Origin: Candidatus Poribacteria bacterium
GTDB taxonomy: Bacteria > Poribacteria > WGA-4E > JAJDTR01
NCBI GenBank assembly: GCA_965222225.1
Contig: CBDCTK010000002.1
Span: 3,712,001-3,776,000 of the forward strand
DNA: 64,000 bases
Direction: 5' to 3'
Shown: positions 13,631 through 62,400 of the stretch, in pieces
How positions within the stretch are numbered: position 1 is the first letter of the stretch
Layout of the letters: each line of letters begins with the position of its first letter
Position numbers and translations under genes: made by a program
The notes under the pieces: model-generated
The model's database searches: none
Told to the model about the DNA's origin: nothing
The model's input: only the letters and a program-made list of their open reading frames with translations

Positions 13631-13701
13631 GATCAATTGAGCGGATAGTGATGGATCAAGCGAAAGATTAGTGAGTGCGATAGAACCCCTATAGAAGCTC
13701 C
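13631..13701 (+). repeat. GATCAA...GCGATAG micro-element, nested pair
   Basis: Left ends at 13631 and 13654, lying between palindrome arms TGGATTTAC / GTAAATCCA. Confidence 0.8.
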
Positions 13702-13880: not shown

Positions 13881-14735
13881 ATGGACATTTTGAATCTTAT
13901 GAAAGAGTTTCCAAATCAAGAATCTTGTCTCAGATTTATAGAGGAAAAACGTTGGAAGGACGGTGTTTGCTGTATCCACTGTGGCAGTGAAAAAGTTGGA
14001 CGCAAGAACAAAAACGACATTACTACTGGTTGGAATTGCTACGATTGTGAATCTAGCTTTTCGGCTACAGCAGGAACCATCTTCCATGGTACCAAGATAC
14101 CTCTCCAGAAATGGTTTTTGGCTATCTCAATTCTTTCCAATGCCAAGAAAAGCATATCGAGTTGTCAGCTTGCTCGTGACTTGGACATGAATCAAAAGTC
14201 CGCTTGGTATATGGCAATGCGCCTCCGTGAGAAAATGAGTGATAGTGATGAATTGCTGAAAGGGATAGTTGAAGCGGACGAAACCTATGTCGGCGGCAAA
14301 CCCAGAGCAAAATCTAAGAGAGGTAGAGGCACAAATAAATCTCCCGTCATCGGCGTAGTCGAGAGAGGCGGTCGGGTGGTTGCTAAATTCATGAAGGTTC
14401 TATCTGGTGAAAATATCAGAGAATTCATCCTTAGCAATGTCTCACCCGATGAGTCTATTCTTATGACTGATGAATTTCGCTCTTACAATAGTCTGGACGA
14501 AGATATCGAAAGACATGTTATCCATCACCAAGAGAGATATGTTTCTGAGGACGGCGTAACTCACACCAACACCATCGAGTCGTTTTGGGCTTGTGTCAAG
14601 AGGTCATTCTACGGAACGCATCATCACTACAGCAAGAAGTGGCTGCCACTGTATATCATGGAGTCTTGCTGGAAATATAATCGCAGAAAAGATGATGAGA
14701 TTTTCATAAGATTTTTTGATGAATGCTTCACCTGA
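13881..14735 (+). CDS. IS1595-family DDE transposase
   Basis: Zn ribbon CIHC/CYDC, GTIFHGTK, EADETY, MTDE, TNTIESFW. Confidence 0.95.
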   Translation: MDILNLMKEFPNQESCLRFIEEKRWKDGVCCIHCGSEKVGRKNKNDITTGWNCYDCESSFSATAGTIFHGTKIPLQKWFLAISILSNAKKSISSCQLARDLDMNQKSAWYMAMRLREKMSDSDELLKGIVEADETYVGGKPRAKSKRGRGTNKSPVIGVVERGGRVVAKFMKVLSGENIREFILSNVSPDESILMTDEFRSYNSLDEDIERHVIHHQERYVSEDGVTHTNTIESFWACVKRSFYGTHHHYSKKWLPLYIMESCWKYNRRKDDEIFIRFFDECFT

Positions 14736-15264: not shown

Positions 15265-15360
15265 GTAGTAGGCATACTCCGTATGCCGTAACGGTTGTGC
15301 TTATTACGACACGGCGGAGGGATCTCTGTCGCTATCCGTTCCTTTGATCGTGCCTACTAC
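15265..15360. repeat. REP doublet (REPIN) left of RAYT; the inverted REP is interrupted by a micro-element
   Basis: GTAGTAGGCATAC-TCC-GTATGCC and inverted ...GTGCCTACTAC; insert at 15320-15348. Confidence 0.85.
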
Positions 15361-15371
15361 CCCTTAGTAAC

Positions 15372-16017
15372 ATGTTCAAACTCTTCGATTCTAACAGTGA
15401 CTTCCAAATTACAGAAGGTTCAAATCTGCCACATTGGTTTCAACCGCAAGCAACCTACTTTATTACCTTTCGCACTGAGGATTCACCCCCTGGGCATATA
15501 GTTCGACGGTGGTACGCCAAACGATCGGTTTGGCTTGCACAACACGGAATTTCCATTTCAATGCCAGATTGGAAAGACAAACTTGCAGAACTTCCAGAAG
15601 GATTGCGCAAAAATTTTCATCATACGTTTTCACGGCAATATTATGGAATACCTAGACAATGGTCTGGGAAGATGCGATCTGAAACGACCAAGACTATCAA
15701 AGATTGTAGCGGACAGTTTGTTATACTTTAATGGCGATCGGTACCAAATAGGTGACTTTGTGATAATGCCCAACCATGTTCACTTGCTGGTTTGTTTGCT
15801 AGGCGATACAGATCTCCTGAAGCAATGCCGCTCGTGGAAAAAGTTCAGTGCAGGCAAGATTAATAAACTGCTTGAGCGATCCGGCCGATTTTGGCAGGAA
15901 GAAAGTTTCGATCACCTCGTCCGATCGTCTGAACAGTTCTGCGCAATCCAACAATATATAATGAAAAACCCAAGCTATCTCTCGAATGGCGAGTATTTTT
16001 TGTATCAGTTAAAGTAG
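15372..16017 (+). pseudogene. REP-associated tyrosine transposase (RAYT, Y1 HUH), frameshifted
   Basis: Frame 1 has LPHW...YFITFRT; frame 2 has FVIMPNHVHLL, SWKKFSA, FWQEESFDH, YIMKNP; one extra base near 15640 (CAATATTATGGAA). Confidence 0.88.
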
Positions 16018-16118
16018 TAGGCACACGCCGTGTGCCGTAACCATCGTACCTATAACGGCGTGGTGGAACGAGCCTACTACTGTTGCTTTGTTACGGCATA
16101 CGGAATATGTCTACTTCT
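16014..16118. repeat. REP cluster right of RAYT
   Basis: GTAGTAGGCACAC-GCC-GTGTGCC, inverted ...GAGCCTACTAC, and a third copy TTACGGCATACGGAATATGTCTAC. Confidence 0.85.
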
Positions 16119-24586: not shown

Positions 24587-26572
24587 ATGAATTTCCGACA
24601 GAAAATCACACTATATCTTTTACTCTATATCGCGATGTGCAGCGCCGCATTCGCCCAAGTCGTTGAGATACCCGACCCCAACCTTCGCGCTGCCATCGCC
24701 GATGTGTTGGGCATCCCGCGTGGCGCTCCCATCACCCAAGACGATATGAATCGCCTGACACACCTTGACGTTCTGGACCAAGGTATAGCCAATCTAACCG
24801 GCTTGGAGTTCGCAATAAATCTCACGTCCCTTCGTATTGCCGACAACCCAATATCTGACCTACGTCCACTCGCCGGGTTGACCCAGTTGGAAGACCTATC
24901 AATGTGGGCGGTTCGTCATGCCGACATTAGTCCACTGTCCAATCTCACGAGTCTCCGAGGTCTTGACATTGCAGCATGTATTATTGACGACATTAGCGCG
25001 TTAGCAACGTTAACCCAACTTGTCGGGCTTAATATCAGAGGGAACAACATTGCCGATATTCGTCCGCTGTCAAATCTCAAACGACTTAAATCTTTACATG
25101 CCGATAATAATCGTATTACTGATGTCACTCCACTTAGCAATTTGCCAAGGCTGGACTGGTTAGAAATCCACCACAATCAAATAACCGACCATAGCCCGCT
25201 GGACGCGCTCGCACTGTCTCATTTTACGTATGATCAAACATGCGAGATGCCGCCGCTTCCCCTTGAACCACGATTAGCGAATAGAAACTACCCTTCGGTA
25301 TTTACGCGATGGGGCGGCGCTTCTAGAATTGACAATCGTCCCGATGTATCCTTGACGGAAAATACCGCGCTTCATGATTTATGGTACGACGGCCCTCAAT
25401 TTGATTTAGAATTCCAAGAAACATCTCACGGCTTTGCGATAGCCGGCATTCTTGACGAGGCGGTGCAAAGACGCGATGAATATCTTTCTATCAATCCAAA
25501 CATGGTGTTCATTGTTGATATCCGGATGAGAGAAGAGTGGGTATGGGACCTTCCCGAGAACTGGCCGGGCTGGATACGAGACGCCGATGGCCAAAGAGTA
25601 AGCGATTGGCCCGACGCTTTCCTGAACGATTTTACTAACCCACTTGTCCAAGATCGCATTGTCCAACAGGCCATTGCAGTATCCAAGTGCGGTTTGTACG
25701 ACGGCATTTTCTTCGATTATTGGACCGAGAAATGGCCCGTTCTTTCGGGCTGGCGCAGTATGGAAGCTGAACAACGCGCTCGTGACGAGATCTTGAGACG
25801 CATCCGCGCGGCAACCCGCCCGAATTTCCTAATAACGGGCAATGTGAATAATGCAATACTTCCTAGAACCACACCTTACGTCAACAGTGGATTCATGGAA
25901 ACAGTGGTACCGGCTGATCGTGATCTGGAAGATGTCACACGGGAAATAAATATCGACGCCAATTCTCTGTTCTGGCTAGATAAGAATCTGCGCGAACCGC
26001 GTGTCAACGGAATAGAAGGCTGGGCAGTTCCCACCGAAGCACCCGATAGCCCAACGAACCTCCGCTGGATGCGGGCTTTCACTGCACTCAGCCTAACGCA
26101 TTCCGACGAGTACGTCGCTTACCGAAATATAATAGGAGACTCTTACCACTGGTACGACTTCTGCGATGCTAACCTCGGACGCCCCGTCGGGGAGAAGGGG
26201 CAGGTCTATGAGGGGCGATCAAGCGAGGGGACAGCGAGTGCGATAGAGATCCCAGGGCTTTATATCCGCGAATTCACGAACGGCTGGGCTGTTTACAACC
26301 ACAGCGGCGCGGCGCAGGTCATCACGCTGCCGGAGGAGGTGCAGGGCGTCGCTAGCGGGTTGGTAAACACGGAGCATGCGCTCCCCAACCTTGACGGGGA
26401 GATGTATCTGCGCGTCAAACCGAAGAACCCGGCGGATGTCAACGGGGACGGGGTGGTGAATATCTTCGACTTAACGATAGTTGCGCAGGAATTCGGGACG
26501 GATAGTTTGAAGGGAGATGAGGATGGGGTTGTCAATGTGTTTGACCTTGTGTTTGTGGCGAACCAATTCTGA
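24587..26572 (+). CDS. Secreted internalin-type LRR + putative glycoside-hydrolase barrel + dockerin protein
   Basis: Signal peptide, VEIPDPNLRAAI cap, 22-aa LRRs, YDGIFFD, C-terminal DVNGDGVVNIFDL. Confidence 0.85.
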   Translation: MNFRQKITLYLLLYIAMCSAAFAQVVEIPDPNLRAAIADVLGIPRGAPITQDDMNRLTHLDVLDQGIANLTGLEFAINLTSLRIADNPISDLRPLAGLTQLEDLSMWAVRHADISPLSNLTSLRGLDIAACIIDDISALATLTQLVGLNIRGNNIADIRPLSNLKRLKSLHADNNRITDVTPLSNLPRLDWLEIHHNQITDHSPLDALALSHFTYDQTCEMPPLPLEPRLANRNYPSVFTRWGGASRIDNRPDVSLTENTALHDLWYDGPQFDLEFQETSHGFAIAGILDEAVQRRDEYLSINPNMVFIVDIRMREEWVWDLPENWPGWIRDADGQRVSDWPDAFLNDFTNPLVQDRIVQQAIAVSKCGLYDGIFFDYWTEKWPVLSGWRSMEAEQRARDEILRRIRAATRPNFLITGNVNNAILPRTTPYVNSGFMETVVPADRDLEDVTREINIDANSLFWLDKNLREPRVNGIEGWAVPTEAPDSPTNLRWMRAFTALSLTHSDEYVAYRNIIGDSYHWYDFCDANLGRPVGEKGQVYEGRSSEGTASAIEIPGLYIREFTNGWAVYNHSGAAQVITLPEEVQGVASGLVNTEHALPNLDGEMYLRVKPKNPADVNGDGVVNIFDLTIVAQEFGTDSLKGDEDGVVNVFDLVFVANQF

Positions 26573-28614: not shown

Positions 28615-28676
28615 CGTATGCGGGGATCAAGGGAGTGAATAGTGACCGCGATAGAGATCCCCTTGCCCCGCATCGG
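28615..28676 (+). repeat. Micro-element inside the ATGCGGGG/CCCCGCAT palindrome
   Basis: GATCAAGGGAGTGAATAGTGACCGCGATAGAGATCC at 28625-28660. Confidence 0.8.
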
Positions 28677-33581: not shown

Positions 33582-33671
33582 GTAGGGATCAAGCGAGCGG
33601 ACAGCGAGCGATCAAACGACCGAACAGGGAGTGCGATAGAAGTCTTATAGAGATCCATCGTTATTCCCTAC
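33582..33671 (+). repeat. REP palindrome interrupted by a nested micro-element pair
   Basis: GTAGGG[ATCAA..33587, ATCAA..33610 ..AGATCC]ATCGTTATTCCCTAC. Confidence 0.85.
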
Positions 33672-34425: not shown

Positions 34426-34515
34426 GTAGGAGCGATCTCCGAATCGCGACGTGCCGGGAATCGGAAGGAACCTTTATTGATCAAACGACCGAACAGAGAG
34501 TGCGATAGAGAACCC
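34426..34515 (+). repeat. Intact REP GTAGGAGCGATCTCCGAATCGCGAC plus a micro-element at 34479
   Basis: Same REP family at 37043, 37071 (inverted), 38583, 39892 (inverted), 48259, 48302 and 42884-43052. Confidence 0.8.
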
Positions 34516-34546
34516 GGTGAAACTCAACTATTTAGCTGAAACCTAA

Positions 34547-38291: not shown

Positions 38292-38570
38292 ATAAAAAAC
38301 GCCTATCGCTTTCGTCCCTAGGGACGAAAGCGATAGGCGTCAACTTCCGCGGTACCACCCTAATTAACAGATTTCAAAATCTGTTCACTTCGTTGATTGG
38401 TCAATAACAGTGACCTTCCGGCGCGAGCCTACTTTGCCATCTTGACGTTCAACTCGGCGGCTCCAGGATGAAATTCGGCGATCGGTCTCGAAAATGCGCT
38501 TTCAGCCGATGACGCATCCTCCCTAGTCGAGACTCTCCAACCGCTTACTGTGTCCCTTCAAAGCCTTTAT
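38292..38570 (-). promoter_or_regulatory. Phe T-box riboswitch with intrinsic terminator
   Basis: AATTAGGGTGGTACCGCGG T-box (38347-38365); stem I AGTA, AGGGA and GCTGA motifs; specifier TTC (38470-38472); perfect terminator hairpin + U-tract at 38294-38340. Confidence 0.93.
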
Positions 38571-42638: not shown

Positions 42639-42883
42639 TCAAGTGTTTCCTCTTGCACCGTCTTCTCAAGAATTCAACTATATCGCAACCCATCCGCACC
42701 ATTTGGAACACCGCGACTGCACCCCTCGGTGCGGCGGCCAGGTTTATAGACGAGGCACGATGCGTGTTTGCACGAAGTCTTGCTCCTTGCCGTATGATAA
42801 TTCACCTCAACCTCGCAAGTTTAATGCCTTTGGAGTCGGTTTGAAGATTTTATTCGCGACGATAGATTGCGATTGGGCGATTT

Positions 42884-43052
42884 TCGAGATCCGGAGGGAA
42901 TCTCTATCGATTAACTGAGATCAAAGGAGTGATCAAGTGACCGATTAGTGAACGCGATAGAGATCCTATAGTAAATCCCGTGCGATAGCGATCTTTGATA
43001 GCGAAGGCGGTAGAAAATCCCACTCACTATTCTTTCGTTTGATCGCTCCTAC
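42884..43052. repeat. Minus-strand REP carrying multi-layer nested micro-elements
   Basis: Reverse complement reads GTAGGAGCG[ATCAAACGAAAGAATAGTGAGTG{..}CGATAGAGATTCC]CTCCGGATCTCGA; plus-strand copies at 42919 and 42931 lie inside the braces. Confidence 0.78.
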
Positions 43053-43242
43053 AGATATCCTCTCGGGTTTGTATTTCAATCTTAGCAAACCTTCCCTATT
43101 CCCGTCAATAAAATGCGCATTTCGTTCCAGCACAATCGTCAAAACCCCAATTTCCCGTCTCATCCCCCCGATTTGCGATACGATTCCCTAGCTAGAACGA
43201 AAAAACAAACGAAAAAACAAACGAAAAATAATCCACAATTAG

Positions 43243-43271
43243 TTGACAAAATTCACAAAACTCTGTATAGT
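43243..43271 (+). promoter_or_regulatory. Sigma70-type promoter
   Basis: TTGACA-17 bp-TATAGT; A-rich 12-bp tandem (CGAAAAAACAAA) upstream. Confidence 0.7.
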
Positions 43272-43479
43272 ACTATTTGATTTGGTGGATGTTTTTCAAT
43301 GACATACGATATCTGGATTATTAACGCGTTAGGCATGTGAAACCGTTGCTAACCGCGTATTTTAGCGTGTCGGTATACAGTATGTAATTTGTGTTTGAAT
43401 ACAATATATACTAGCATCACCCCTCGGTATTTTGTAGTTTCACCGTCCTCCCATATTAAGTATTTTTAAGAGATTTCAG

Positions 43480-44502
43480 ATGACAAAGATTCCGTTCCTC
43501 TTCATCGTTTTGTGGTTTGGCTTGCAATTGGCTCTCCCTCACTCAATTCCAGCACAATCAACTACGGCACAACCAACGAAAGATTCCGCCGAGAAGACTC
43601 AGCCTCTCGACGCCCCCGAAGAGAAACCGGCGAACGACTCGGAGCCGGATAATCAGCCATCAGAAATCGCTCGCAGTGTGGAGGCGAATCAACAGGTTGT
43701 GCAGATTGGTGGAAATTATCACCTCAGTCCCAAGGAAGCTGTCGAGAGTTTGATTGTGATTGGCGGCAATTTGACTCTTCGAGGCAAGGTCAATAACGAC
43801 GTGCTGGTTCTAAAAGGTGACGTTGAGGTGCAAGAAGGGGCAGTGGTTCTAGGCAGCGTTACCACGGTTTTAGGTGAGATTCGGGGAAAGCAGTATCTAG
43901 AGGGTATTCACAGAGAAGTTAACGGCTGGAAGTTTATCCCCGCCTCCGCATGGCTTATCATGCGACCACAGGAGGCGTGGGGAATGGGGAAGTCCGCGAA
44001 ATTTGGGTGGGGCGTGTTGGTGTTCATCGCGCTAACTTTGGTTCACATTACGGTTTATGCCGTATTCCCTCAACGGCTGAATACCATGGCACACGTAATC
44101 TCTCACCGTCCCATAGGCAGCACGCTGCTTGGATTCATAGTGATGATCGTCGCCCCTTGTCTCATAGCGGTGTTGGTGCTTTCAATAGTCGGTATCCCGT
44201 TTGTGCTGTTGTTTATCTCAATTTTGCTTCCGATAGCAATCTACGGCAAGACGGCAGTCTTCCTATCAATGGGGCAAACAATCTTTTCCAACCAACCAAA
44301 GGTTGTGGCAGTGGTTGCGGGCTATTGGATTTATTTCATGGCAACTTCTATCCCACACGTGGGTTTACCCATGTTCCTAGCCGCAAACGCCATCGCAGTC
44401 GGTATCTGTCTCAGGACGGTGTTTGGTCAGAAATCGAGACAGAGCGCCCCTCCGTTCGCTCACCGGCACCCCCTCCTCGACAAATACCGGCAGGCGGATT
44501 AA
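43480..44502 (+). CDS. Bactofilin-like beta-helix + multi-TM membrane protein
   Basis: Signal peptide; VIGGNLTLRGKVNNDVLVLKGDV...VLGSVTTVLG repeats; TM bundle with SIVGIP. Confidence 0.75.
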   Translation: MTKIPFLFIVLWFGLQLALPHSIPAQSTTAQPTKDSAEKTQPLDAPEEKPANDSEPDNQPSEIARSVEANQQVVQIGGNYHLSPKEAVESLIVIGGNLTLRGKVNNDVLVLKGDVEVQEGAVVLGSVTTVLGEIRGKQYLEGIHREVNGWKFIPASAWLIMRPQEAWGMGKSAKFGWGVLVFIALTLVHITVYAVFPQRLNTMAHVISHRPIGSTLLGFIVMIVAPCLIAVLVLSIVGIPFVLLFISILLPIAIYGKTAVFLSMGQTIFSNQPKVVAVVAGYWIYFMATSIPHVGLPMFLAANAIAVGICLRTVFGQKSRQSAPPFAHRHPLLDKYRQAD

Positions 44503-44601
44503 CCAAGAGCTCGTAGGTTGGATTGAACATAACGAAGCCCAACTCCCTAATTAAAATCTAATTTCTCCACGCTGCGAACCCAACCCAGGAGAGGCATACC
44601 C

Positions 44602-45582
44602 ATGGCACATCACTCGGACGAACTTTTTAGTACGGACGATTGGGTCGAGATTTACAAGACAGGCGACGAGTGGGAAGTTAAGTTAATCGAGGCAACGCTG
44701 CAAAACCAACAGATTCGGTGTCGTCCGGTCTACGATCGAAAGTTGCGTCAAACAACCTTATTTGTTGCGCCGGAACATCAAGTAGATGCGCTTGAGCTTG
44801 TAAGCAGAATTGGCTTGGTCATTACGGATAATCAAAGTACAACACCCCGTTCGGACGAAGATGAGTGGGAGCAAAATCAATCTTCTCACCAAGCGATTGA
44901 TGGCGACAACAATCTACCGGACGCAACGGCTCCCGCCCTTGAGGAGGTTACGGTTGCGGAACGGGAAGGCATCGGAGCGATTATCCACTATATCGGGCGC
45001 GGATATGAGTTGCATGTCGGTCCCGAGCCTTACGTCATTGTTGAAGAGGACCGTTGGGAGGAATTCACCGACCTGAGCGCACAGCGCCAAGAATTCCCGA
45101 TTCTTCTCAGGCATGAATATCCGGAACTTCTCGCATGGCTCAAGTATAAGAAATTGATGGCAGAGTTCATTCGTCTGGTCGAATCCACCTACAGCGAGGT
45201 TCCGCCGCCACGAGGGCAACGCCGCCGTGAGTCAAATCAGTCGCATCCCGCTACCCAACACCCCGAAACCAATTCGGCTGAAGCGAAAGTCCCCCAAATC
45301 GCAAAATTCAGCCTCTGGCTTTCGCTTGTTTCGTTGCTCGCCGCCTTCATCCAATTGCCTTTGTATGCATGCGCCGTGCTTTCCGTGTTGGCAATTGGAC
45401 TAGCGCTGCTCGGGGCATACAGGATTATCACTGAGGACAGCGGGGTTAAAGGAACCCCCGTTGTTCTGATTGCCATAATTCTCGCCCTATTTGCGCTTGC
45501 AGTCGGGTGGAAACAGTCTCAGCCCAGCCCGGTACAACCGGATGCGCGCATTAGGAACGCCGAGTCCGGGACAGCAAAATGA
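44602..45582 (+). CDS. Hypothetical protein (DUF2007-like N-terminus, C-terminal TM helices)
   Basis: WVEIY...EVKLIEATL...I...LFVAPE..ALELV; 3 C-terminal hydrophobic segments; SD present. Confidence 0.7.
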   Translation: MAHHSDELFSTDDWVEIYKTGDEWEVKLIEATLQNQQIRCRPVYDRKLRQTTLFVAPEHQVDALELVSRIGLVITDNQSTTPRSDEDEWEQNQSSHQAIDGDNNLPDATAPALEEVTVAEREGIGAIIHYIGRGYELHVGPEPYVIVEEDRWEEFTDLSAQRQEFPILLRHEYPELLAWLKYKKLMAEFIRLVESTYSEVPPPRGQRRRESNQSHPATQHPETNSAEAKVPQIAKFSLWLSLVSLLAAFIQLPLYACAVLSVLAIGLALLGAYRIITEDSGVKGTPVVLIAIILALFALAVGWKQSQPSPVQPDARIRNAESGTAK

Positions 45583-45605
45583 TTCTCTGAATCCAAGAAC
45601 ACAAT

Positions 45606-46295
45606 ATGTCCTGCTGCACCATTGTATTTGCCAAGAATCCCGTGCCCGGTCAGGTAAAGACCCGCCTACTCCCTCTCCTCTCGCCCGACCAAGTGGCATC
45701 ACTCTACCGAGCCTTCTTGGTTGACTGGTGTAATGCGCTTTCCTCGCTCCCGACGATCGATTTGGTCGTAGCTTACACTCCACCCGACGGTTTAGGCGAC
45801 CTGAAAACTTTGATTGGAGAGCAGGCGATTTACATCCCCCAAGGAGATTCAGGATTGGGTGAACGGTTAACCGCGGTGTCACGATGGGCTTGCGATCAGG
45901 ACTACGGAACGTTCCTGCTCGTCGGCTCCGATAGCCCAACCCTTCCGATAGCGTACATTCAGCGAGCGATGGAGTTATTGGAATCCCGTGATATTGTCAT
46001 CGGTCCGAGCACGGATGGCGGATATTACCTCATCGGGTTTTCCAAAAGCGGAGCGAACCGCACAATCCCCGTCATATTTCAGGACATTGCGTGGAGCACG
46101 GAGCATGTCCTTAGACAGACACTTGAGAAAGTTGACTCAACCGGCGCACAACTCGGGTTGTTGCCGCCGTGGTACGATGTTGATACGCCATCCGACTTGC
46201 GGTTTTTGCGGGATCACCTGTTTGCCATGCGTCTTGCCGGATGCCGCGCCCCTTTTCCGAGGACAGAACGTGAATTAGAAAAATGGTTGAGTTGA
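45606..46295 (+). CDS. DUF2064/TIGR04282 CofC-like nucleotidyl/glycosyltransferase
   Basis: FAKNPVPGQVKTRL, Q...LGERL, GSDSPTL, GPSTDGGYYLIG, I.WST, DVDT..DL. Confidence 0.88.
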   Translation: MSCCTIVFAKNPVPGQVKTRLLPLLSPDQVASLYRAFLVDWCNALSSLPTIDLVVAYTPPDGLGDLKTLIGEQAIYIPQGDSGLGERLTAVSRWACDQDYGTFLLVGSDSPTLPIAYIQRAMELLESRDIVIGPSTDGGYYLIGFSKSGANRTIPVIFQDIAWSTEHVLRQTLEKVDSTGAQLGLLPPWYDVDTPSDLRFLRDHLFAMRLAGCRAPFPRTERELEKWLS

Positions 46296-46342
46296 ACAAT
46301 CTGCAATCATCGCTGCGGACGTTGCCTCGGAGGTGTTTATGT

Positions 46343-46717
46343 CTAGTCGGTGTTATCCGCAATTCGTCGTAAGTAGGTTTCGACATCGTCTAAATCGGTT
46401 CCCATCTCGCTTAAGTGGCTTTCAATATCGTATAGATAGCTTTTGCTGCTCCCAGACTTGCTTTCGATACTGTTTAACGTACTTTCGATACTACTTAAAT
46501 TGCTGTTGATACTGTTCAAGGTACTTTGGATACTGCTTAAGCTGCTTGTGATGCTGCGCAAGTAGCTTTCGATTTCGGAACTGGGAGCGGGTAGGTTGTA
46601 GTCGGTATTGGGTTCGCCCGATTCACTGGCGGTGTACAGTGTGAATACCCCAAACAGGAAACAAGATATGATAACGGAGACTAGGACGAAGGATCCGTGT
46701 TTCTTGATCTCGGACAT
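46343..46717 (-). CDS. Membrane-anchored Ser-rich heptad coiled-coil protein
   Basis: AAAAGGAG SD; N-terminal TM; (SIxSxL.)n repeats encoded by degenerate 21-bp units. Confidence 0.75.
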   Translation of the reverse strand: MSEIKKHGSFVLVSVIISCFLFGVFTLYTASESGEPNTDYNLPAPSSEIESYLRSITSSLSSIQSTLNSINSNLSSIESTLNSIESKSGSSKSYLYDIESHLSEMGTDLDDVETYLRRIADNTD

Positions 46718-46858
46718 GATAGATTCTCCTTTTTATGTACGGCAGCGCTCAGCGTTGCCGGGGGTTAATCTATGGCTATACTTCACTATTGGGGATTGTT
46801 GGATATTGGGAATTGTTGGATGAATCAGAAGGAGGTGGCTAGTGAAATGAAATGCTTA

Positions 46859-47247
46859 AGAGCCTGTTTGAAAAGTACAGTTTGTAGGGTGCGATCAAAC
46901 GAGTGGATAGCGAGTGCGATAGCTAATCCCGCGCGATAGAAATCCCATAGAAATCCTGCACCATTTCTTGTATGGTGCGATCAAAGGAATGAATAATGAC
47001 TGCGATAGAGATCCCCTTCGATTAAGTGACCGAATAGGGAACGCGATAGGGATCCTACCAGCCTTTGTGAGCCCCAGCGTGGGATCAAACGAGCGAATAG
47101 CGATCAAGCGACTGAATAAGGAGCGCGATAGAAATCCCGTGCGATAGAAATCCTGACAGGTGTATAGCAGGCGACCACAAAAGCATGAAAAAGCCGCACC
47201 CAAAGTGACCAAAAATCGCTTTGCCACCTATTATTCAATCAGGCTCT
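46859..47247. mobile_element. MITE-like element filled with REPs and micro-elements
   Basis: TIRs AGAGCCTGTTTGAA / TTCAATCAGGCTCT (13/14) with TA on both flanks; micro-elements at 46893, 46979, 47020, 47083 and 47102. Confidence 0.65.
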
Positions 47248-47314
47248 TAGTAAATGCCGTGCGATAGAGTCCCTGCTAGAAACAGCTATGTTTTTGGGGT
47301 AACTACAACCAGTT

Positions 47315-47689
47315 TCAGCGCTCTCTGACCTGAGCGTCGTAGATAAGGAACTCCGTAATCTGACTGGCAGTTTTAGGTGTCAATCCCGAGCCGGGCTTTC
47401 TCATCATGTGCTGCACATACTTCTTCCACTCCTCTGCCGTGAAGGCAGAGTTGATGGGGCGGGCAACCGTATGACACCGGCTGCATTTGTTTGCGAACAG
47501 TTGGTAGTATTCCCGTATCTTGGGAGGATAGCCTGAGACATCAACGTAATTTTGCCCCTTATCGGCGGGATACGTCTTGAGAGTTGCTTGGGGTATTCGG
47601 AGCATTCCGATGACTATGGCGACCATCAAGCCAAGCACAATCAAGACGGTTATCCAAACCACGAGTTGACCCATCCGTCGGTATCCCAA
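47315..47689 (-). CDS. Membrane-anchored monoheme cytochrome c
   Basis: N-terminal TM; CSRCH; W...V.HMM.K distal Met. Confidence 0.82.
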   Translation of the reverse strand: MGYRRMGQLVVWITVLIVLGLMVAIVIGMLRIPQATLKTYPADKGQNYVDVSGYPPKIREYYQLFANKCSRCHTVARPINSAFTAEEWKKYVQHMMRKPGSGLTPKTASQITEFLIYDAQVRER

Positions 47690-47692
47690 TCG

Positions 47693-48178
47693 TTACGCTT
47701 CCGCTTTTAGCGTTTCCACGCGTCGTTGGGCAGCCATTCCCAGATAGTGATAATCAAAATCTTTCACGAGCTTCCCAAATTGTTTTATCGCCTTATTGCG
47801 CTGTCCAAGTTTATTGTGGGATTCTGCTAACCAGTAAAGACACTTAAGGAGCGTCGGGTTCGGGTTTTCGTCACTCCCCGCTTTTGCGGATACGCCGTGT
47901 CTCTTCTCGTATGCAATAGCGGCTTTGAATTTCTTTACCGCGTTCTCGAAATCGCGGTGCTCATGGTATGCTTGGAAAGCTTGGTACAGGTTGAGATTGT
48001 CGCTATTGTCACGGAGAAATTCCAGATTATCAGCGACTTCTTCTAAAGCGTACTCTCCGTCATCCGCCTCATCTGGTTGTGTCTCATCTGGTTGTGTCTC
48101 ATCTGGTTGTGCCTCAACTGGTTGTGCCTCAACCAGTTCTTGATCGTCTTGCAACTCAGCCATTTCAATCTCCTTCAT
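47693..48178 (-). CDS. TPR (BamD/YbgF-like) protein with acidic QPDET repeats
   Basis: TPR LYWLAESHNKLG...AIKQF; 15-bp tandem repeats at ~48065-48135. Confidence 0.72.
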   Translation of the reverse strand: MKEIEMAELQDDQELVEAQPVEAQPDETQPDETQPDEADDGEYALEEVADNLEFLRDNSDNLNLYQAFQAYHEHRDFENAVKKFKAAIAYEKRHGVSAKAGSDENPNPTLLKCLYWLAESHNKLGQRNKAIKQFGKLVKDFDYHYLGMAAQRRVETLKAEA

Positions 48179-48258
48179 AAAGGTTTTGTTGTTGATTTAG
48201 TATACCAAACATACGACCGAATCGCAAATCATAAAACTCCCTCAAGCAACTGGATGTT

Positions 48259-48523
48259 GTAGGAGCGATCTCCAGGTCGCGATTCCGTAGAACCAAACGT
48301 TGTAGGAGCAATCAAGCGAGTGGATAGGTCAAGCGAGCGAACAGCGACCACGATAGCAATCCCCCTCCCGGTCGCGACCCATCAACGAAGCGGATAGTAA
48401 TTATAGGGTGCGATCAAAGGAATGAATAATGACTGCGATAGAGATCCCCTGCGATCAAGCGACTGGATAAGGAGCGCGATAGCTATCCCATGCGATAGAG
48501 ATCTTAGTGCGATAGAAATTCCC
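48259..48523 (+). repeat. REP and micro-element cluster
   Basis: Intact REP at 48259; interrupted REP at 48302-48379; element left ends at ~48310, 48327, 48380, 48412 and 48453, with extra right halves. Confidence 0.85.
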
Positions 48524-48783
48524 TAGCCATCCTCCCCTTCCCCCCAAACCTCATTACAGACCCAACCCCATTTCCCATTGGCAATTCCCCGGCACCTATG
48601 CCATAATCTCACACTGCGACCATGTTGAACATGTTCGGATTGAATTATGAAAACAGAAACTTACTAACATTCACCGTAGGAGCCAACCATGAAGACAAAA
48701 TTTATAATATTGATATGTACACTAACTTCACTAAGGTTGAAAAATCCCTGAGCTACATGCCAAATGTAAGAGGTGGCTCTACG

Positions 48784-49644
48784 ATGTCTAAGAAAACGGG
48801 AAACGCAGCACAGGAGAACCACGGAGACGAACAGTCTCGTAAATACATGCTAGAAATTGCCGGCAGCGGTGGTGGCAGTGTAGCAGGTGCGTATTTGGGA
48901 TTACTAGTCGCCGGTCCAGCCGGAGTTTTGGTGGGAGCATTGTGCGGGGGCGCGGGAGGTAAGGTCATTGAAATTGCGTTGAGGGTAGTTTTCCAAGAGA
49001 TTTGGGCGCGACAGTTGAGCACGCCAGAGAGAATGCGCGTAGGTACTGTGCTTGACGTCGTGATTGCCGAAATACGCCGGCGTATAGAAGCTGGTGAAAG
49101 TGTACGCATGGATGGCTTCTTCGACGAGAAACAAGCGGGCAGACCCGATGCAGAAGAAGTTGCGGAGAGCGTGCTATTGAAGGTTCAGAGAGAGCCGGAA
49201 GAAATGAAACTCCCGTACATGGCTTATTTTCTTTCAAGCATCGCCTTCAATCCGGAAATCAGCGCACAAATGGCACACCAACTCACAAAGATCGCCGAGC
49301 AACTTACCTACCGACAATTATGCATTCTTAAGCTCTCTGTCGTGAAAGATGAATATGGGCTGCGTGGCAAAGACTACCGGGATCATGATGATTTCGGAAA
49401 AGACCTCTATCCGGTACTTTACGAGTGTGCTGAACTTTATAACAAGGAATATATTAACTTCGGGGGTGAAGCGAATTTTCATATCGGGGAACATATGGAT
49501 TACGGCGCTACAATTCACCGACTTACGAGGGCAAGACCTGACCAGATGACCCTCCAAGGCATAGGTGCAGATCTTTTCAATCTCATGAAACTGTCTTTGA
49601 TACCGAAGAAAGATATAGCCCCAATTGCCGAGCAGTTAAAGTAA
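48784..49644 (+). CDS. Hypothetical protein with N-terminal glycine zipper (Abi-alpha-like architecture, tentative)
   Basis: GSVAGAYLGLLVAGPAGVLVGALCGG; E.EEMK..YMA...; LTYRQLCIL; start moved to MSKKTG after a GAGGTG SD. Confidence 0.7.
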   Translation: MSKKTGNAAQENHGDEQSRKYMLEIAGSGGGSVAGAYLGLLVAGPAGVLVGALCGGAGGKVIEIALRVVFQEIWARQLSTPERMRVGTVLDVVIAEIRRRIEAGESVRMDGFFDEKQAGRPDAEEVAESVLLKVQREPEEMKLPYMAYFLSSIAFNPEISAQMAHQLTKIAEQLTYRQLCILKLSVVKDEYGLRGKDYRDHDDFGKDLYPVLYECAELYNKEYINFGGEANFHIGEHMDYGATIHRLTRARPDQMTLQGIGADLFNLMKLSLIPKKDIAPIAEQLK

Positions 49645-49970
49645 AACGACATTGGACAACAAGGTTTCGGGCAGCGATGTGACATTATTCTCCCGGAAAG
49701 GTATTGTGCAGATTCCAACCTACATCCACCACATTCTCCTCTAAACACTGCTCGTGCGTTCACTTGTTAAATGGACATCCCCTGAAAGTGAAGGAGTTTT
49801 TCTCAGAGTGTGTAAGGACTAATGGTGACGACAGCTCTTTTACTGGACGCAGGCAAATGTACTTTGCCTATGCGGCGTTTGTCGGACGCCCGCGAGCGCT
49901 ATTCGCCGTGCACCAAATGTAATCCGCCGCAGTAAGAGAAAAGTATCTTGAGAAAAGGAGTTGAAAGCGA

Positions 49971-50507
49971 ATGATAAGCGAAAGGGAAAGCACTTTGGCA
50001 CGAGAGACATATCTGCTAGAAGGATACAAAGATTTAAGCAGATGGAACATCCAAGAGGATGGAGCTTTGATCAATCTTGATAGATTCCTGATAACGGCAT
50101 CGGTAGGGGCATGCCTATTGACATTAGTGAAAGCGCGTGAAGCCTATCCAGCCGTATATTTGGGCAGCGGGTTGGTGCTCTATTTCTGGCTGTTACTATC
50201 TATCCGATATAAAGCCAGAATTAAGCACAGGTTTCTCTTAATGCATGAAATAGAAAAACAGTTACGCTTCAGTGCACATATGGACTATGATTCCGCGAAG
50301 TTGACATACGAACTCGTCTTTCCCCGTAAGAGCTCGAATTGTAAGCGAGAAGAATGTAAGTCGAAAGTACTGCCAACCGATATAGAGATAAGACGACGTT
50401 TCTTCTTCGGTTATTTGATAGTTATGTTCCCAGCTGTAATAAAAGGAATAGAGGCACTACCAAATCTCATGGGCAATCTGCCCATTCTCCAGATAATATC
50501 GGGGTGA
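49971..50507 (+). CDS. Small 3-TM membrane protein
   Basis: AAGGAG SD; layout LEGYK..DR.. TM-TM-W ..IEKQL.. TM. Confidence 0.72.
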   Translation: MISERESTLARETYLLEGYKDLSRWNIQEDGALINLDRFLITASVGACLLTLVKAREAYPAVYLGSGLVLYFWLLLSIRYKARIKHRFLLMHEIEKQLRFSAHMDYDSAKLTYELVFPRKSSNCKREECKSKVLPTDIEIRRRFFFGYLIVMFPAVIKGIEALPNLMGNLPILQIISG

Positions 50508-50580
50508 GGGCACTACGGGGTGTTTGACGCCTGCTCCAAATCGAGTTCCTAGGAATCCCTAGATACTCTTTATTTCAATG

Positions 50581-50727
50581 AGGAAATGATGACACGATTT
50601 AAGGAAATGATGACACGATTTAAGGAAATGATGACACGATTTAAGGAAATGGTGACACGATTTAAGGAAATGGTGACACGATTTAAGGAAATGGTGACAC
50701 GATTTAAGGAAATGGTGACACGATTTA
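50581..50727 (+). repeat. 21-bp tandem repeat x7
   Basis: AGGAAATG(A/G)TGACACGATTTA; three A-type units then four G-type units. Confidence 0.97.
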
Positions 50728-50981
50728 TTGTTTACCGCCCCATACTCACTCTGATTGTAGTTGCTGAAATCTATCTAATTTACTCCGGGTTGGGTGGTGC
50801 AGGTAGTCTGAAATCAGAACCAGAATACAAAGTCATCAGTGACACCGATCACACAGTCGTAGAGAGTAGTTTGGAAAAGTGGGCGAGAGAGGACTATGAG
50901 TTACTTCAGATTTCTACTTGTTGTACGCACGAAAAAGCGATAACGTATACTATTGTGTTGAAAAAGAAAAGCAACTGGTAG
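50586..50981 (+). CDS. TM + DUF4177-like small protein with repeated N-terminus
   Basis: (M/V)TRFKEM repeats, TM helix, EYKVI...LEKWAREDYEL...YTIVLKK. Confidence 0.65.
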   Translation: MMTRFKEMMTRFKEMMTRFKEMVTRFKEMVTRFKEMVTRFKEMVTRFIVYRPILTLIVVAEIYLIYSGLGGAGSLKSEPEYKVISDTDHTVVESSLEKWAREDYELLQISTCCTHEKAITYTIVLKKKSNW

Positions 50982-51096
50982 CTAAATCTCACACACGCAG
51001 TGAATGTCAAAAACGCTGTAAATTGCCTCGGATTGGTAAATCGCCTAGAAGGCAGGGTTTGGAAAACCTCTGCGATTTTTACAATAGGGGAAGGCA

Positions 51097-51855
51097 ATGT
51101 TTATAGAATTTGCTTTAATAGCCAAGGAACATACAAGCTGTGTGCAAGAGGCTCTATTTTCTATAGAAAGTTCTCTAGAAAAGATTACTACGAACTACAA
51201 TAAATATGTAAACATCTTCAGAGCAGAATTGATTAGAAGAGCGTTGATTCATGATAATGATAAGTGCGAGGAAGCCGTTATCATTGATGGGCAACAAGTC
51301 CCTTTTCAGTTTGCTGAATACACTGTGGGCTCTGACTATGTCTTTGGTAAAGGAGTTGCGGATGCCGAGTACGGCTCTGAAGAATATCATAAGATCAACA
51401 CCGAGGGGTACGCTGGACTAAACGCTCGAGATAATCACAAAAAAAAGATCAATGACCATCACCCGGAGTACTACAATGACTACAAAACCGACATGAAACT
51501 TCTTCCACTAATTGAAATGGTATGCGATTGGTGGGGCGCTACTGCCTATCCTCATGGAGATCCGAAGCCTAAGTTTCGAACAAATTCAGCCAAGAATATT
51601 TGTCATTATGGTTTTGACGGCTATCAGAAATTCGTAGTAGAACGAACTCGTGATTTCATAGACACTCATGCCAGTGATTTGATTGAAATCATTTACGAAG
51701 GGTGTACGAATTACCATAACGATTCTATCCCACCGTGTACTTCGGACGCCGAAGGTCAATTCTATAGGGAATTGAATGATTTTCTCAAAGAACGAATAGA
51801 TTCACTAGCGCAAGCGAAAGCTAGGCGATGTAAAGCGTGGAGGACTTATGAGTGA
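51097..51855 (+). CDS. DUF5662-like HD-superfamily metal-dependent hydrolase
   Basis: IHDNDK ... H....NDHHPEYY...MKL..LIEMVCDW motifs. Confidence 0.7.
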   Translation: MFIEFALIAKEHTSCVQEALFSIESSLEKITTNYNKYVNIFRAELIRRALIHDNDKCEEAVIIDGQQVPFQFAEYTVGSDYVFGKGVADAEYGSEEYHKINTEGYAGLNARDNHKKKINDHHPEYYNDYKTDMKLLPLIEMVCDWWGATAYPHGDPKPKFRTNSAKNICHYGFDGYQKFVVERTRDFIDTHASDLIEIIYEGCTNYHNDSIPPCTSDAEGQFYRELNDFLKERIDSLAQAKARRCKAWRTYE

Positions 51856-52315
51856 GAACAATGCGAACGGCTCCAAGGATCCAAAGGAGACCGTGAAACT
51901 TGAGGTATACAAAGGACTAATTCAGTACGGCTGTCAGATGTCTCAAGATCATTTAAATTATGATAGAATATTAATGCCTATATCGCTTGTCCCAGCTTAT
52001 TTGGTATTAACCTCATTGGACGTACGAGAGGCCGGCCTTCCAGCCGAATTAATAATATTGTTCGGCGGCTTTCTATTATTAGTTTTTTGGATAATGCGTA
52101 ACATTCGAAGTCGGGCAAGGCTATATGAAACGTGGGACAAAGTATCCTGCCTTGAGGAAGGCTTTGAGGTCCCCGGCATCGGCAAAGTGCTAGATACGAT
52201 AGCCCCCCACTGGGCCCCGAAAGACTTTACACTAAAGATTGTTTTTTTTGTGTTAGCAGTACTGTTATATTTGGCTGTGTTGATCTACGTCATTGTCCGT
52301 GCATGTAAATGCTAA
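51848..52315 (+). CDS. Small 3-TM membrane protein
   Basis: Overlaps the upstream stop by 8 bp; layout LEVYK..DR.. TM-TM-W ..LEE.. TM. Confidence 0.75.
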   Translation: MSENNANGSKDPKETVKLEVYKGLIQYGCQMSQDHLNYDRILMPISLVPAYLVLTSLDVREAGLPAELIILFGGFLLLVFWIMRNIRSRARLYETWDKVSCLEEGFEVPGIGKVLDTIAPHWAPKDFTLKIVFFVLAVLLYLAVLIYVIVRACKC

Positions 52316-52588
52316 ATACGGCCGATAAGAGAGAATATCGAAAAAAAGGTGCACCGAAAACCATCTTTCCCCGCACGTGTTTTTCAATTGTCAAATCCTA
52401 CGGGAGTTTAAACCTCCCTGTTCCCGCAAATCAGGTGTGCAGCATACTTGTCCTCGCACGACAGAGACTCATGCCAGTGTGGGTTTCCCTCGATTAACTG
52501 AATTCTTCGAATTGCCTTATGATGTGAATGCTCCTTATCAGGCCATGGTGTCGCAAATTGCGGTTTCTGCTAATCTTGGGATAACGAC

Positions 52589-53341
52589 ATGAGAAAGAAA
52601 GTCAACAAGAGCCTACAACTCGAAAAGTGGCTCCGTCAGATGCAAACAATTGAAATTGAAATTTCGCGCCTGCTTGGTGATGTTGAGGCATTCCGCCGAC
52701 TTAGGCAGATAGTCAATTCAAACCCATGTATCCAAAAACCGCACACGTTCTATAGTTATCTTTATGACTCTTACTTATCTCATGTTCTAATGGGCTTGCG
52801 GCGTCAAGTCAAGCCGAATAAGGATAGCATTTCTCTTGTGGGATTGCTCCAGGAAATTGCTAACTACCCCCAGGAACTCTCGCGAAGCTACTACCGATTG
52901 CTTTGTCATCAACCCGACGCCCCGGATTTTCACGAAATAGAACCTGAGGGTCAGAAGCAACTCACTGACATCGGTATCACTACTTCTTCACAGTTTAGAC
53001 AAGCCATTCCGATCGAGGATGACTTCGTAAAATATGCGAATGCGAGCAAGACTCATGTCTGTCCAGAGATGGTACGACGTGATCTGTGCGATCTCCTAAC
53101 AACCGTAGCAGCGTGTGAAGATTATGCCGATAAGCGCATTGCCCATCGCGATAAGCGAGCCCCGCAATACATACAGACGTTTGAGGATTTAGAGAAGAAC
53201 CTTGACTCAGCACTAGAGTTCCTGCAACAGATGTATGAGAAATATTACCACTTGTTCAATGCTGCTTCAATCACTGTAAAACCTCAAGATCAATCGGACT
53301 GGAAGGACATTTTCAGCGTGCCATGGATTAAGCCCAACTAG
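52589..53341 (+). CDS. HEPN (AbiU2-like) domain protein
   Basis: LMGLRR...DSISLVGLL ... YADKRIAHRD motif. Confidence 0.72.
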   Translation: MRKKVNKSLQLEKWLRQMQTIEIEISRLLGDVEAFRRLRQIVNSNPCIQKPHTFYSYLYDSYLSHVLMGLRRQVKPNKDSISLVGLLQEIANYPQELSRSYYRLLCHQPDAPDFHEIEPEGQKQLTDIGITTSSQFRQAIPIEDDFVKYANASKTHVCPEMVRRDLCDLLTTVAACEDYADKRIAHRDKRAPQYIQTFEDLEKNLDSALEFLQQMYEKYYHLFNAASITVKPQDQSDWKDIFSVPWIKPN

Positions 53342-55024: not shown

Positions 55025-55176
55025 TTTTTTCCTATCAAATCGATCCGTGAGACATCCTTTGTGTCGAGTTTTCATAGGTGTCGGGGCGAGATTGGTAGTC
55101 ATCAAACCACCGATGTCCCGTCTTACCACCCGCTAATCACTAATTTTTCAAATCCTTCGCCGAGGTCCACGTCGTA

Positions 55177-56130: not shown

Positions 56131-56210
56131 CCAAATTCCACCTTTGCGTTCCTTCCTTGAAAATCAATAGATAATAGTTGTAGTATGTGCACAGCACTCC
56201 TGTATCTAAA

Positions 56211-56258
56211 AGCCCCAGCGGGGATCAAACGAGTGAACAACGAGGGCGATAGAGTTCA
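56211..56258 (+). repeat. Micro-element after AGCCCCAGCGGG
   Basis: GATCAAACGAGTGAACAACGAGGGCGATAG at 56223; same left flank as 47070. Confidence 0.8.
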
Positions 56259-61942: not shown

Positions 61943-62164
61943 GATCAACCGAGTGGATAATGAGCGATCAACTGAACGAATAGTGAAGGCGATAGAAAGT
62001 CCTGATAGAGATCCCTTAATCAGCGATTCAGACAATCTCCTTACCTCCCCATTTACCCCTCCCTACCCCCTGACCATCAAGCAAGCGGATAGCGATCAAC
62101 CGACTGAATAAGGAGGGATCAAGTGAGTGAATAGCGAACGCGATAGAACTCCCATGGAGATCCC
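61943..62164 (+). repeat. Nested micro-element clusters
   Basis: Left ends at 61943, 61966, 62075, 62094 and 62117. Confidence 0.85.
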
Positions 62165-62223
62165 ATTCGGACAATCTCCCTCCACTTCCCACGCTCACCC
62201 CAATGTTAAAAACATATTAACAC

Positions 62224-62252
62224 TTGACAAATCCGCCCTAACATGATATAAT
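62224..62252 (+). promoter_or_regulatory. Perfect consensus sigma70 promoter
   Basis: TTGACA-17 bp-TATAAT. Confidence 0.85.
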
Positions 62253-62400
62253 GTGCCACAGTTGCTCTTCGCAAGCATTGGCCCAAACAAGCGACGGAGC
62301 ACGACGAGCAAGCGAGCGGATAGTGAGTGCGATAGTTGATCTCTCGGGATAGTAAATCCCCCAAACACGAACCGCGCTGAACTAAATATCACAATTTTCC

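Follow-up and report, generated by a model that had tools for sequence, protein, structure and literature searches.

A micro-element of 34 to 37 nt resembling small dispersed repeats interrupts GTAG hairpin repeats and other intergenic DNA in "Candidatus Poribacteria"

In a 64,000-nt stretch of a "Candidatus Poribacteria" genome (assembly GCA_965222225.1, contig CBDCTK010000002.1, positions 3,712,001 to 3,776,000; here called the window), a Y1 HUH gene lies between inverted doublets of GTAG-type repetitive extragenic palindromic (REP) sequences at 15265-15360 and 16014-16085, and one of these REPs is interrupted by a short segment that has no place in it. What is this segment, and how did it enter the REP? 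The locus itself is a classic REP-associated tyrosine transposase (RAYT) gene between its REPs, with the RAYT gene broken (PF01797, Y1_Tnp, match at 15739-15966; 26.8 bits). On the minus strand, positions 15360-15303 read GTAGTAGGCACG / ATCAAAGGAACGGATAGCGACAGAGATC / CC / TCCGCCGTGTCG (slashes mark junctions here and below), and alignment with the uninterrupted sister REP at 16053-16085(-) bears out the insertion proposed in a first-pass annotation made from the sequence. Within the window, the 29-mer made up of the inserted element and the G before it is unique, and 100 shuffles did not produce it; an nhmmer profile finds a head-only match at 15329-15348(-) (model positions 1-20; 11.7 bits). 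The segment belongs, in shortened form, to a large family of repeats of 34 to 37 nt. The family has been inserted throughout the genome, commonly into one strand of hairpin repeats, and it may be moved in trans through single-stranded DNA.

Of all 14-mers in the 5.70-Mb genome, GCGATAGAGATCCC is the most frequent (146 copies). A regular expression recovered 708 canonical un-nested copies of the element, of which 423 measure 34 nt and 255 measure 35 nt, and peeling away nested copies brought the canonical total to 1083. The nhmmer profile, built from the regular-expression copies, matched the genome 1565 times and a block-shuffled control 4 times, with a best score of 12.3 bits in the control. 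The consensus is ATCAA-RS-GA-NN-GRATA-N'N'-GA-SY-GCGATAG-ARATC followed by two pyrimidines, and the ends share no terminal inverted repeat beyond GATC. Within the consensus lies a mini-hairpin of six pairs, in which RS-GA-NN and N'N'-GA-SY form a stem with tandem G.A pairs around a GRATA loop. Four of these pairs (6-22, 7-21, 10-18, and 11-17), at positions left free in the search pattern, are paired in 88 to 93% of 689 distinct cores, versus 18 to 49% when the partner is shifted by one; they also have the highest mutual information, and each occurs in at least three Watson-Crick types. Conservation of the tandem G.A/A.G pairs is partly imposed by the pattern, and the free positions 19 and 20 are G in 96% and A in 97%, respectively. 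The covariation indicates that the hairpin is kept by compensatory change. Wobbles in the stem are G.T or T.G in 338 cases versus A.C or C.A in 100, so the ATCAA (plus) strand is the strand whose pairing is kept, which suggests that the element folds as a single strand in its plus-strand form. The element matches no family of Rfam 15 at gathering score. With 689 distinct cores among 1083 copies and some filled REPs common to sister species, the family is old.

That the element is inserted, and is not an ancestral part of its hosts, follows from its presence in at least seven unrelated REP families, in a hairpin repeat without GTAG, in its own copies, and in other intergenic DNA. Intact and filled forms of the same host coexist in the genome: 78 versus 48 copies for GTAGGGTGCG, 77 versus 21 for GTAGGGTGGG, 95 versus 31 for GTAGGAGCG, and 14 versus 17 for GTAGGCGGGG. 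Where elements are nested, cutting out the inner copies restores 83 canonical host elements and then 5 more, and restoration is best when the net insert is taken as the core plus 1 nt. In the window, the individual insertions listed by the first-pass annotation were all borne out: GTAGGAGCA/ATCAA at 48302 is matched by intact repeats at 48259 and 34426; GTAGGGTGCG and TGCACC flank the insert at 46884; the host at 28618 is a GTAT variant of the GTAGGCGGGG family; and the host at 13612 is a palindrome. The insert at 33582, which separates GTAGGG from ATCGTTATTCCCTAC, does correspond to intact repeats at 31569 and 26581, with a host loss of 7 nt where about 6 bp had been stated. The broader claim that removing the insert restores the host repeat is only approximately right, since 1 to 3 host bases are missing.

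The two junctions differ in character. The 5' junction is exact: ATCAA follows a G in 960 of 1106 junctions (87%), as part of CG in 470 and of GG in 365. Base -2 tracks the host, being GCG in the REP family called REP A and GGG in the related REP A', and because the base before the junction G varies with the host, that G is a target base. The 3' junction consists of GATC and two pyrimidines (CC in 508, CT in 185, and TT in 118 of 995) that are not tied to any subfamily of the element and that stand in the place of the 1 to 3 lost host bases. Thus, CAC is changed to CCC at REP A site 1 and C to CT, TT, or CC at REP A site 2; CG gives CC or C in the GTAG-free repeat (REP-B); and CATC gives CCC in the GTAGGCGGGG family, with like changes in nested hosts. 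No target-site duplication was found, and the target shows a deletion instead. Near-identical strains (runs X3 to X14) share 62 to 70% of the window's 31-mers. Empty-site alleles were sought in such strains, using short Logan contigs from runs X3, X5, X6, and X8 over window positions 42801-62800, and no usable empty site was obtained; joints in strain contigs, e.g., 46979 to 47019 with 39 nt skipped, have sides of 20 to 31 nt and probably come from paralogous copies. Orthologous intergenic regions of nine sister species (about 83 to 87% identity) were too rearranged to yield exact empty sites, and they showed turnover plus one filled REP common to three species.

Insertions into GTAG REPs were the central claim of the first-pass annotation; they are real, and they amount to only about a third of all insertions. 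GTAG lies within 20 nt upstream of 296 of the 1106 5' junctions and is absent from that interval in 810. One site of the non-GTAG hairpin repeat REP-B (AAGCCCCAGCGGGG/CGACAGGT) accounts for 104 junctions, and 339 are nested in another copy, 287 in the same orientation (mostly head to tail) and 52 in the opposite one. About 92 of the roughly 1100 junctions fall inside crude open reading frame (ORF) calls, and the rest are intergenic. Among 892 arrays with an intact 5' end, GTAG is found within 20 nt upstream in 316, whereas CTAC lies within 20 nt downstream in only 38 and upstream in 29, with about 57 expected by chance. Junctions most often lie 6 nt from GTAG (122 arrays), with further peaks at 13 nt (46), 5 nt (44), and 1 to 3 nt (66). 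The genome-wide table of offset and orientation thus upheld the observation that several REP families are entered a few bases 3' of GTAG, with the element reading away from it. The host repeats carry GTAG 5' of an imperfect hairpin of 20 to 40 nt, are present in high copy number, and are intergenic, as is characteristic of REPs; they include GTAGGGTGCGCACTGCGCACC (78 intact copies) and GTAGGGTGGGCA..CCCACC (77), and more families exist. REP-B itself is a hairpin repeat with about 100 dispersed copies, and inverted copies of it (AAGCCCCAGCGGGGCGACAGGT) flank an intact IS200-like tnpA gene (L001, G000:C2:3080372-3080716, where G000:C2 is the chromosome of the window's genome). REP A and REP-B are adjacent parts of one composite repeat, AGAGCCTGTTTGAAAAGT...GTAGGGTGCGCACTGCGCACCAGCC...AGCCCCAGCGGGGCGACAGGT...TAGCAGCC....

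Within these hairpin repeats one strand is chosen, more strictly than the local sequence explains. In REP A (GTAG-GGTGCGCA-C-TGCGCACC), the cut motif TGCG/CA is present twice on each strand; the two top-strand sites are filled in 50 and 21 copies, and their bottom-strand equivalents are filled in 2 and 0. For REP A', the figures are 21 versus 4. Distinct insert types, defined as differing by more than 2 mismatches in 18 nt, were counted to allow for co-amplified composites: REP A carries 21 types on top (71 copies) and 1 on the bottom (2 copies), and REP A and REP A' together carry 35 on top (11, 10, and 14 at the three sites) and 2 on the bottom (1, 0, and 1; P = 5e-9 versus 0.5). In REP-B, all 18 filled copies, which represent 7 types, are on top, although CTGGGG/C is present on the bottom too. 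The regional strand bias that elements and REPs share was considered as a source of this pattern. Agreement with the regional orientation is 69 to 83% for intact REPs and 86% for REP-hosted arrays, which predicts about 70% top-strand insertion; against an expected 0.70, 35 of 37 insert types on top gives P = 2.6e-4, so the shared bias does not explain the strand choice. Almost all of the few REP insertions on the bottom strand fall within a repeat cluster at G000:C2:4079500-4089000, whose units have the form ...AAAAGGCTGGTG(G or C)G/ATCAA...GATAGTCTTGGTGGATTCC...GAATCGCG...; they are probably one event copied with its unit. In pattern counts that include some double counts and loose matches, the GTAG preference recurred in five genomes of the window's genus, g1 (260 to 577 GTAG-upstream matches versus 25 to 59 for the CTAC control), and in four genomes of genus g4, from a different family (95 to 110 versus 13 to 17); element tails followed by CTAC numbered 10 to 21 in the g4 genomes, about the level of the backwards control.

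On a larger scale, the orientation of the element flips along the chromosome with local GC skew. ATCAA is on the C-rich strand at 196 of 268 GTAG-class junctions, 73 of 96 REP-B junctions, 213 of 326 junctions in other contexts, and 183 of 265 junctions nested in the same orientation, i.e., at 65 to 76% (with skew as a proxy, and a fragmented one); intact REPs also favor the C-rich strand (REP A, 50 of 70; REP A', 57 of 74). Since the plus strand of the element is G rich, the element does not create the skew. Elements and REPs appear to share a replication-strand bias, as read from the C-rich-strand proxy. Orientation relative to flanking tandem genes was 353 versus 315, which is not significant, and a link to transcription was rejected. 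In 250-kb bins, the GC skew of the G000:C2 chromosome reverses at least eight times, and the element turns with it, e.g., from an orientation ratio of 69:5 at 5.25 Mb to 1:15 at 5.5 Mb; these flips suggest numerous inversions, assembly joins, or an unusual layout of replication.

Across genera, the element has a patchy distribution. A scan of a species collection returned at least 101 stretches, and all of the matches listed were from metagenome-assembled genomes (MAGs) of "Ca. Poribacteria." Among 176 Poribacteria genomes, 21 match the element pattern: all 10 genomes of genus g1 (459 to 1094 canonical copies), all 4 of genus g4 (142 to 166), one genome of genus g6 (17), and six others with 1 to 5 copies, in which contamination between co-resident MAGs is possible. 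IMG/VR viral contigs gave no match to the element, and a plasmid search gave matches at chance level only (E = 6). Genes with PF01797 are present in all 14 element-rich genomes.

A PF01797 search of the genome found five Y1_Tnp loci (Table 1); the family names of the two intact ones, L001 and L002, are our presumption from that search and from motifs. L002, the only Y1 clade profiled, was rejected as a co-distributed enzyme owing to its sporadic occurrence. It is 99% identical in a sister species (G005), though shared genes are only about 83 to 87% identical between the genomes, which suggests recent transfer. A reverse transcriptase (RT) was likewise rejected as the mover: the only PF00078 match in the genome is an AbiA-type defense RT of 670 amino acids (PADLOC AbiA, E = 4e-76). 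No TnpB gene (PF07282) was found in the genome. An autonomous long parent was sought through head-only and tail-only matches 250 to 8000 nt apart, and the resulting 98 pairs had no preferred spacing.

Table 1. Positions of the insert, its copies, host repeats, and candidate enzyme genes (window positions unless prefixed with G000:C2)
Feature	Position	Strand	Remarks
Micro-element ATCAA...GATC, 28 nt	15321..15348	-	About 6 nt missing inside; host G 15349 before, CC 15320-15319 after
Interrupted GTAG REP GTAGTAGGCACG...TCCGCCGTGTCG	15303..15360	-	Second half of doublet upstream of RAYT gene
Intact GTAG REP GTAGTAGGCATACTCCGTATGCC	15265..15287	+	First half of upstream doublet
Uninterrupted sister REP doublet	16014..16085		Plus REP 16014-16036, minus REP 16053-16085; downstream of RAYT gene
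RAYT-type Y1 (HUH) gene (L004)	15372..16017	+	Frameshifted; overlapping ORFs 15372..15731 and 15535..16017 (119 + 160 amino acids)
Nested array, two heads	13632..13701	+	Within palindrome GGATTTAC...GTAAATCC
Full-length element	26218..26253	+	After ...GGGGCG
Full-length element	28626..28661	+	In degenerate REP GTATGCGGGG/.../CTTGCCCCGCAT
Nested array	33588..33655	+	After GTAGGG; host REP GTAGGGAATAACAATCGTTATTCCCTAC minus 7 nt
Element, non-REP context	34480..34516	+	After ...TTTATTG
Two elements, opposite orientation	42932..43043		42932-42967 (+); 43017-43043 (-) after GTAGGAGCG
Four arrays in composite repeat	46894..47154	+	After GTAGGGTGCG; after GTATGGTGCG; GATTAA variant; after CCCCAGCGTGGG (REP-B site)
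Arrays	48311..48504	+	After GTAGGAGCA and after TAGGGTGCG / CCCCTGCG
Element at REP-B site	56224..56257	+	AAGCCCCAGCGGGG/
Three more arrays	61944..62335	+	Two nested
L001	G000:C2:3080372-3080716		Intact, IS200-like tnpA
L002	G000:C2:2563965-2564705		Intact, 247 amino acids, RAYT-like, without flanking REPs
L003			Y1 locus, REP-flanked, one stop codon
L005			Y1 fragment
AbiA-type RT	G000:C2:4499560-4501572 (L012:514-2526)	-	

Several further observations concern the window. In four metagenome runs, strain variants omit 12 or 24 nt at 43196 (window 43172-43279), which looks like length polymorphism. Over windows 46803-47469 and 48137-48803, summed contig depth in four runs was 390 to 2400, versus about 40 in adjacent bins; in four sponge-associated metagenomes, depth at element-bearing bins was 10 to 60 times that of neighboring bins. 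The repeats are thus greatly over-represented in these data sets, and they break short-read contigs. In practice, the element fragments short-read assemblies of Poribacteria. Near the RAYT locus, an ORF of 284 amino acids (13881-14735, +) has a Cys-rich N terminus and resembles an IS1595/ISXO2-type transposase. The only Rfam match in the window is a T-box leader (RF00230) at 38317-38570(-), in a Poribacteria genome, with 93.5 bits against a gathering score of 93.

How the element moves can be proposed only tentatively. The preferred reading, to which a probability of about 0.4 is assigned, is that a non-autonomous element of 34 to 37 nt is moved in trans through single-stranded DNA, with a Y1 HUH enzyme as the most likely agent. 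The plus strand of the element would travel as single-stranded DNA, to be joined into a single-stranded target of the same polarity by an enzyme acting in trans. That enzyme would most likely be a Y1 HUH protein (RAYT or IS200-like) bound to, or processing, its own hairpin repeat. Y1 enzymes sitting on their own repeats would explain why the strand that is bound is also the strand that is hit, and the untidy 3' junction suggests that repair or re-priming makes the second joint, in place of another precise transesterification. According to published biochemistry (PMC3479197), any single strand with a 3'-OH might in principle be taken up by a RAYT monomer that is left on a 5'-phosphotyrosine. 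A RAYT role is plausible for the REP-hosted share of the insertions and cannot be the sole route. The proposal may be taken further, to a rather doubtful hyperparasite of HUH transposition: 36-nt plus-strand DNA spliced into other hairpin elements, in their single-stranded top-strand form, while these are held or moved by Y1 enzymes. The hosts would then be GTAG REPs, the IS200-like hairpin repeat, and the element's own copies, and polarity would be set by chemistry and not by sequence. Were this so, no smaller single-strand transposon would be known, and the element would be the first parasite of the system of RAYTs and REP doublets forming hairpins (REPINs).

Several observations weigh against trans mobilization by a Y1 enzyme. 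No cognate enzyme was found, and none of the five Y1 loci of this genome is linked to the element; the REP-flanked RAYTs (L003 and L004) are broken; L002 occurs in 3 of 9 other g1 genomes and in 0 of 4 g4 genomes; and Y1_Tnp genes, present in 34 of 41 relatives, extend to genera without the element. The joints of IS200/IS605 elements are fully precise, unlike those seen here. If the G-rich strand is the leading strand, as we assume by convention, the plus strand of the element lies on the leading-strand template, the opposite of IS608. Of 1106 junctions, 367 are in neither a recognized repeat nor another copy. The 144 cleanest non-REP sites were not more structured than 600 control intergenic SG sites (mean, -7.25 versus -7.95 kcal/mol), and a general hairpin requirement was rejected on this comparison. 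Part of the REP signal consists of co-amplified composites, with a single insert type accounting for about half of the copies at site 1 of REP A. Nearest-neighbor folding of four copies gave no significant hairpin (0 to -2.2 kcal/mol; z, 0.19 to 1.21); because energy models miss the hairpin, the structure is drawn from covariation alone and probably needs a protein. Finally, the junctions (G/A on the left, GATC-YY with a loss of 1 to 3 nt on the right) are not the C/T joints of E. coli TnpA-REP, and a poribacterial RAYT could differ. The E. coli enzyme is described as cleaving and joining at a C/T dinucleotide specified by A3 and G4 of GTAG (PMC3479197).

The first-pass annotation had proposed entry by RAYT cleavage or strand transfer, which would make the element a parasite or tag of the REP/RAYT system. 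In a strict form of this proposal, the element is dedicated to that system and enters where a RAYT cleaves the GTAG-bound REP, and copies elsewhere are decayed REPs or secondary events. Insertion into REPs and the choice of strand survive from this proposal, as do the absolute orientation to GTAG and the preferred offset of 5 to 6 nt across several REP families, the same pattern in genus g4, and the PF01797 matches in all 14 element-rich genomes; some sites of the "other" class are indeed degenerate REPs, e.g., GTAT or GTCG variants. In its strict form it is nonetheless unlikely, because 810 of 1106 junctions have no GTAG within 20 nt upstream, the flank logo of clean non-REP sites has no GTAG-like signal, and REP-B has no GTAG and yet is used on one strand only. 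In addition, insertion points are G/N and not C/T, the 3' joint is imprecise, and many RAYT-bearing relatives lack the element. Movement by a non-Y1 enzyme, such as a host recombinase or nuclease or reverse transcription, with REPs hit merely as exposed, structured single-stranded DNA on one template strand, is less probable than not. Y1 genes do not follow the patchy, genus-level distribution of the element; an exact junction on one side, with an untidy one and small target deletions on the other, is typical of primed copying; and the tandem G.A pairs, GRATA loop, and G.U-type wobble look RNA-like. The sole RT found is the AbiA-type defense enzyme, however, and orientation is unbiased relative to transcription. 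Moreover, REP hairpins are palindromic, and exposure alone fails to explain the use of the GTAG strand in REPs that oppose the regional orientation (disagreement with that orientation is seen in 21 of 153 GTAG-class arrays and in 17 to 31% of intact REPs).

The remaining two accounts dispense with a preference or with an enzyme, and both are improbable. If there were no real REP preference, a few chance insertions into REPINs would have been copied many times with the host repeat. The insert type AAGGAATGAATAATGACT is the one that accounts for about half of the copies at REP A site 1, as noted above, and its core, with 43 copies, is the most abundant in the genome; REP A and REP-B belong to one larger composite repeat, and some filled REPs occupy orthologous loci in sister species. 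Co-amplification of this kind is hard to reconcile with 35 distinct insert types at three top-strand REP A and REP A' sites versus 2 on the bottom strand, with the use of at least seven REP families, or with the same bias in another genus with other REP families, and it is the least credible of the explanations weighed. Template switching, in which strands stalled at hairpins anneal by 1 to 2 nt of microhomology (SG on the left, C or Y on the right), copy, and switch back without a dedicated enzyme, is only marginally easier to accept. The conserved flanks G(-1) and C(+1) could be such microhomologies, and the small deletions at the 3' joint, the preference for hairpin repeats, and the apparent replication-strand bias are in its favor. 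The 5' end of the unit is sharply defined, however; the compensatory upkeep of the hairpin in 689 distinct cores implies selection for a recognized structure; and homology of 1 to 2 nt cannot account for more than 1000 copies of one unit only.

How elements of 20 to 40 nt move has been an open question since the small dispersed repeats (SDR) of cyanobacteria were described. The poribacterial element provides a second, independent system in an uncultured phylum of sponge symbionts, where genomes of one genus carry more than 1000 copies each and those of a second about 150 canonical ones. It also gives unusually clear handles on the process: a 5' joint that falls exactly after G, a characteristic scar at the 3' end, the covarying hairpin, an apparent replication-strand bias, and the absolute choice of strand in REP hairpins. 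These features give testable predictions for Y1 HUH enzymes and bear on the erosion or remodeling of REP/RAYT systems.

The element was compared with several known systems. The REP/REPIN-RAYT systems (REPtrons) are represented by its hosts, since the host repeats are GTAG hairpins in inverted doublets around a Y1 gene. The element resembles REPs in being a short hairpin with conserved flanks and in sharing their strand bias; unlike them, it has no GTAG, is not found as inverted doublets around a gene, and inserts inside REPs at G/N. GTAG repeats have been reported from several phyla, including the Planctomycetes-Verrucomicrobia-Chlamydiae group (PMC3733652). Literature searches, judged at the level of search results, returned no report of such repeats in Poribacteria. 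The IS200/IS605 family of insertion sequences and its gene-less derivatives, the palindrome-associated transposable elements (PATEs), move as single strands by means of a Y1 HUH transposase. The element is like them in having no terminal inverted repeats of any length, no target duplication, and one polarity 3' of a short specific sequence, and in its dependence on a hairpin and its apparent replication-strand bias. It differs from IS200/IS605 in its single hairpin, its length of about 36 nt, its target of about 2 nt, and its imprecise 3' joint with a loss of 1 to 3 nt, and neither TnpB nor a full-length parent was found for it in the searches described above. Insertion sequences that target REPs are known, e.g., IS1397 in the palindromic units of E. 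coli and those of Tobes and Pareja 2006 (both as cited in PMC3116915); these too use REP hairpins as targets, but they are full insertion sequences with their own transposase, whereas the element is 36 nt long and non-coding. It shares non-autonomy, intergenic location, and high copy number with miniature inverted-repeat transposable elements (MITEs), which in bacteria are given as 70 to 300 bp (PMC3733652). It is 2 to 8 times smaller, has only GATC in place of terminal inverted repeats of 15 to 30 bp, and makes no target duplication.

The closest precedent is the SDR, compared here by description only. SDR, like the element, are very small, non-coding, highly repeated, dispersed, and inferred to be mobile; those of the Nostocaceae are reportedly 21 to 27 nt long and are said to nest in one another and to share a secondary structure. 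The element belongs with repeats of this type in being under 100 nt, non-coding, and dispersed, with evidence of insertion. It differs in occurring in another phylum, in its greater length of 34 to 37 nt, and in its preference for one strand of GTAG REP hairpins. One account reports SDR or SDR-like repeats as not found outside the Nostocaceae (PMC5861425). SDR5 is described as inserting precisely between the third and fourth bases of the highly iterated palindrome HIP1, GCG/ATCGC (PMC4390886); the element inserts after (G)CG or GG and begins with ATC, in a genome that, in contrast to the SDR5/HIP1 case, is not HIP1 rich (120 copies of GCGATCGC). The element is thus an SDR-like micro-element in a new phylum, for which the absolute strand preference in GTAG REPs and the defined junction scar are newly documented.

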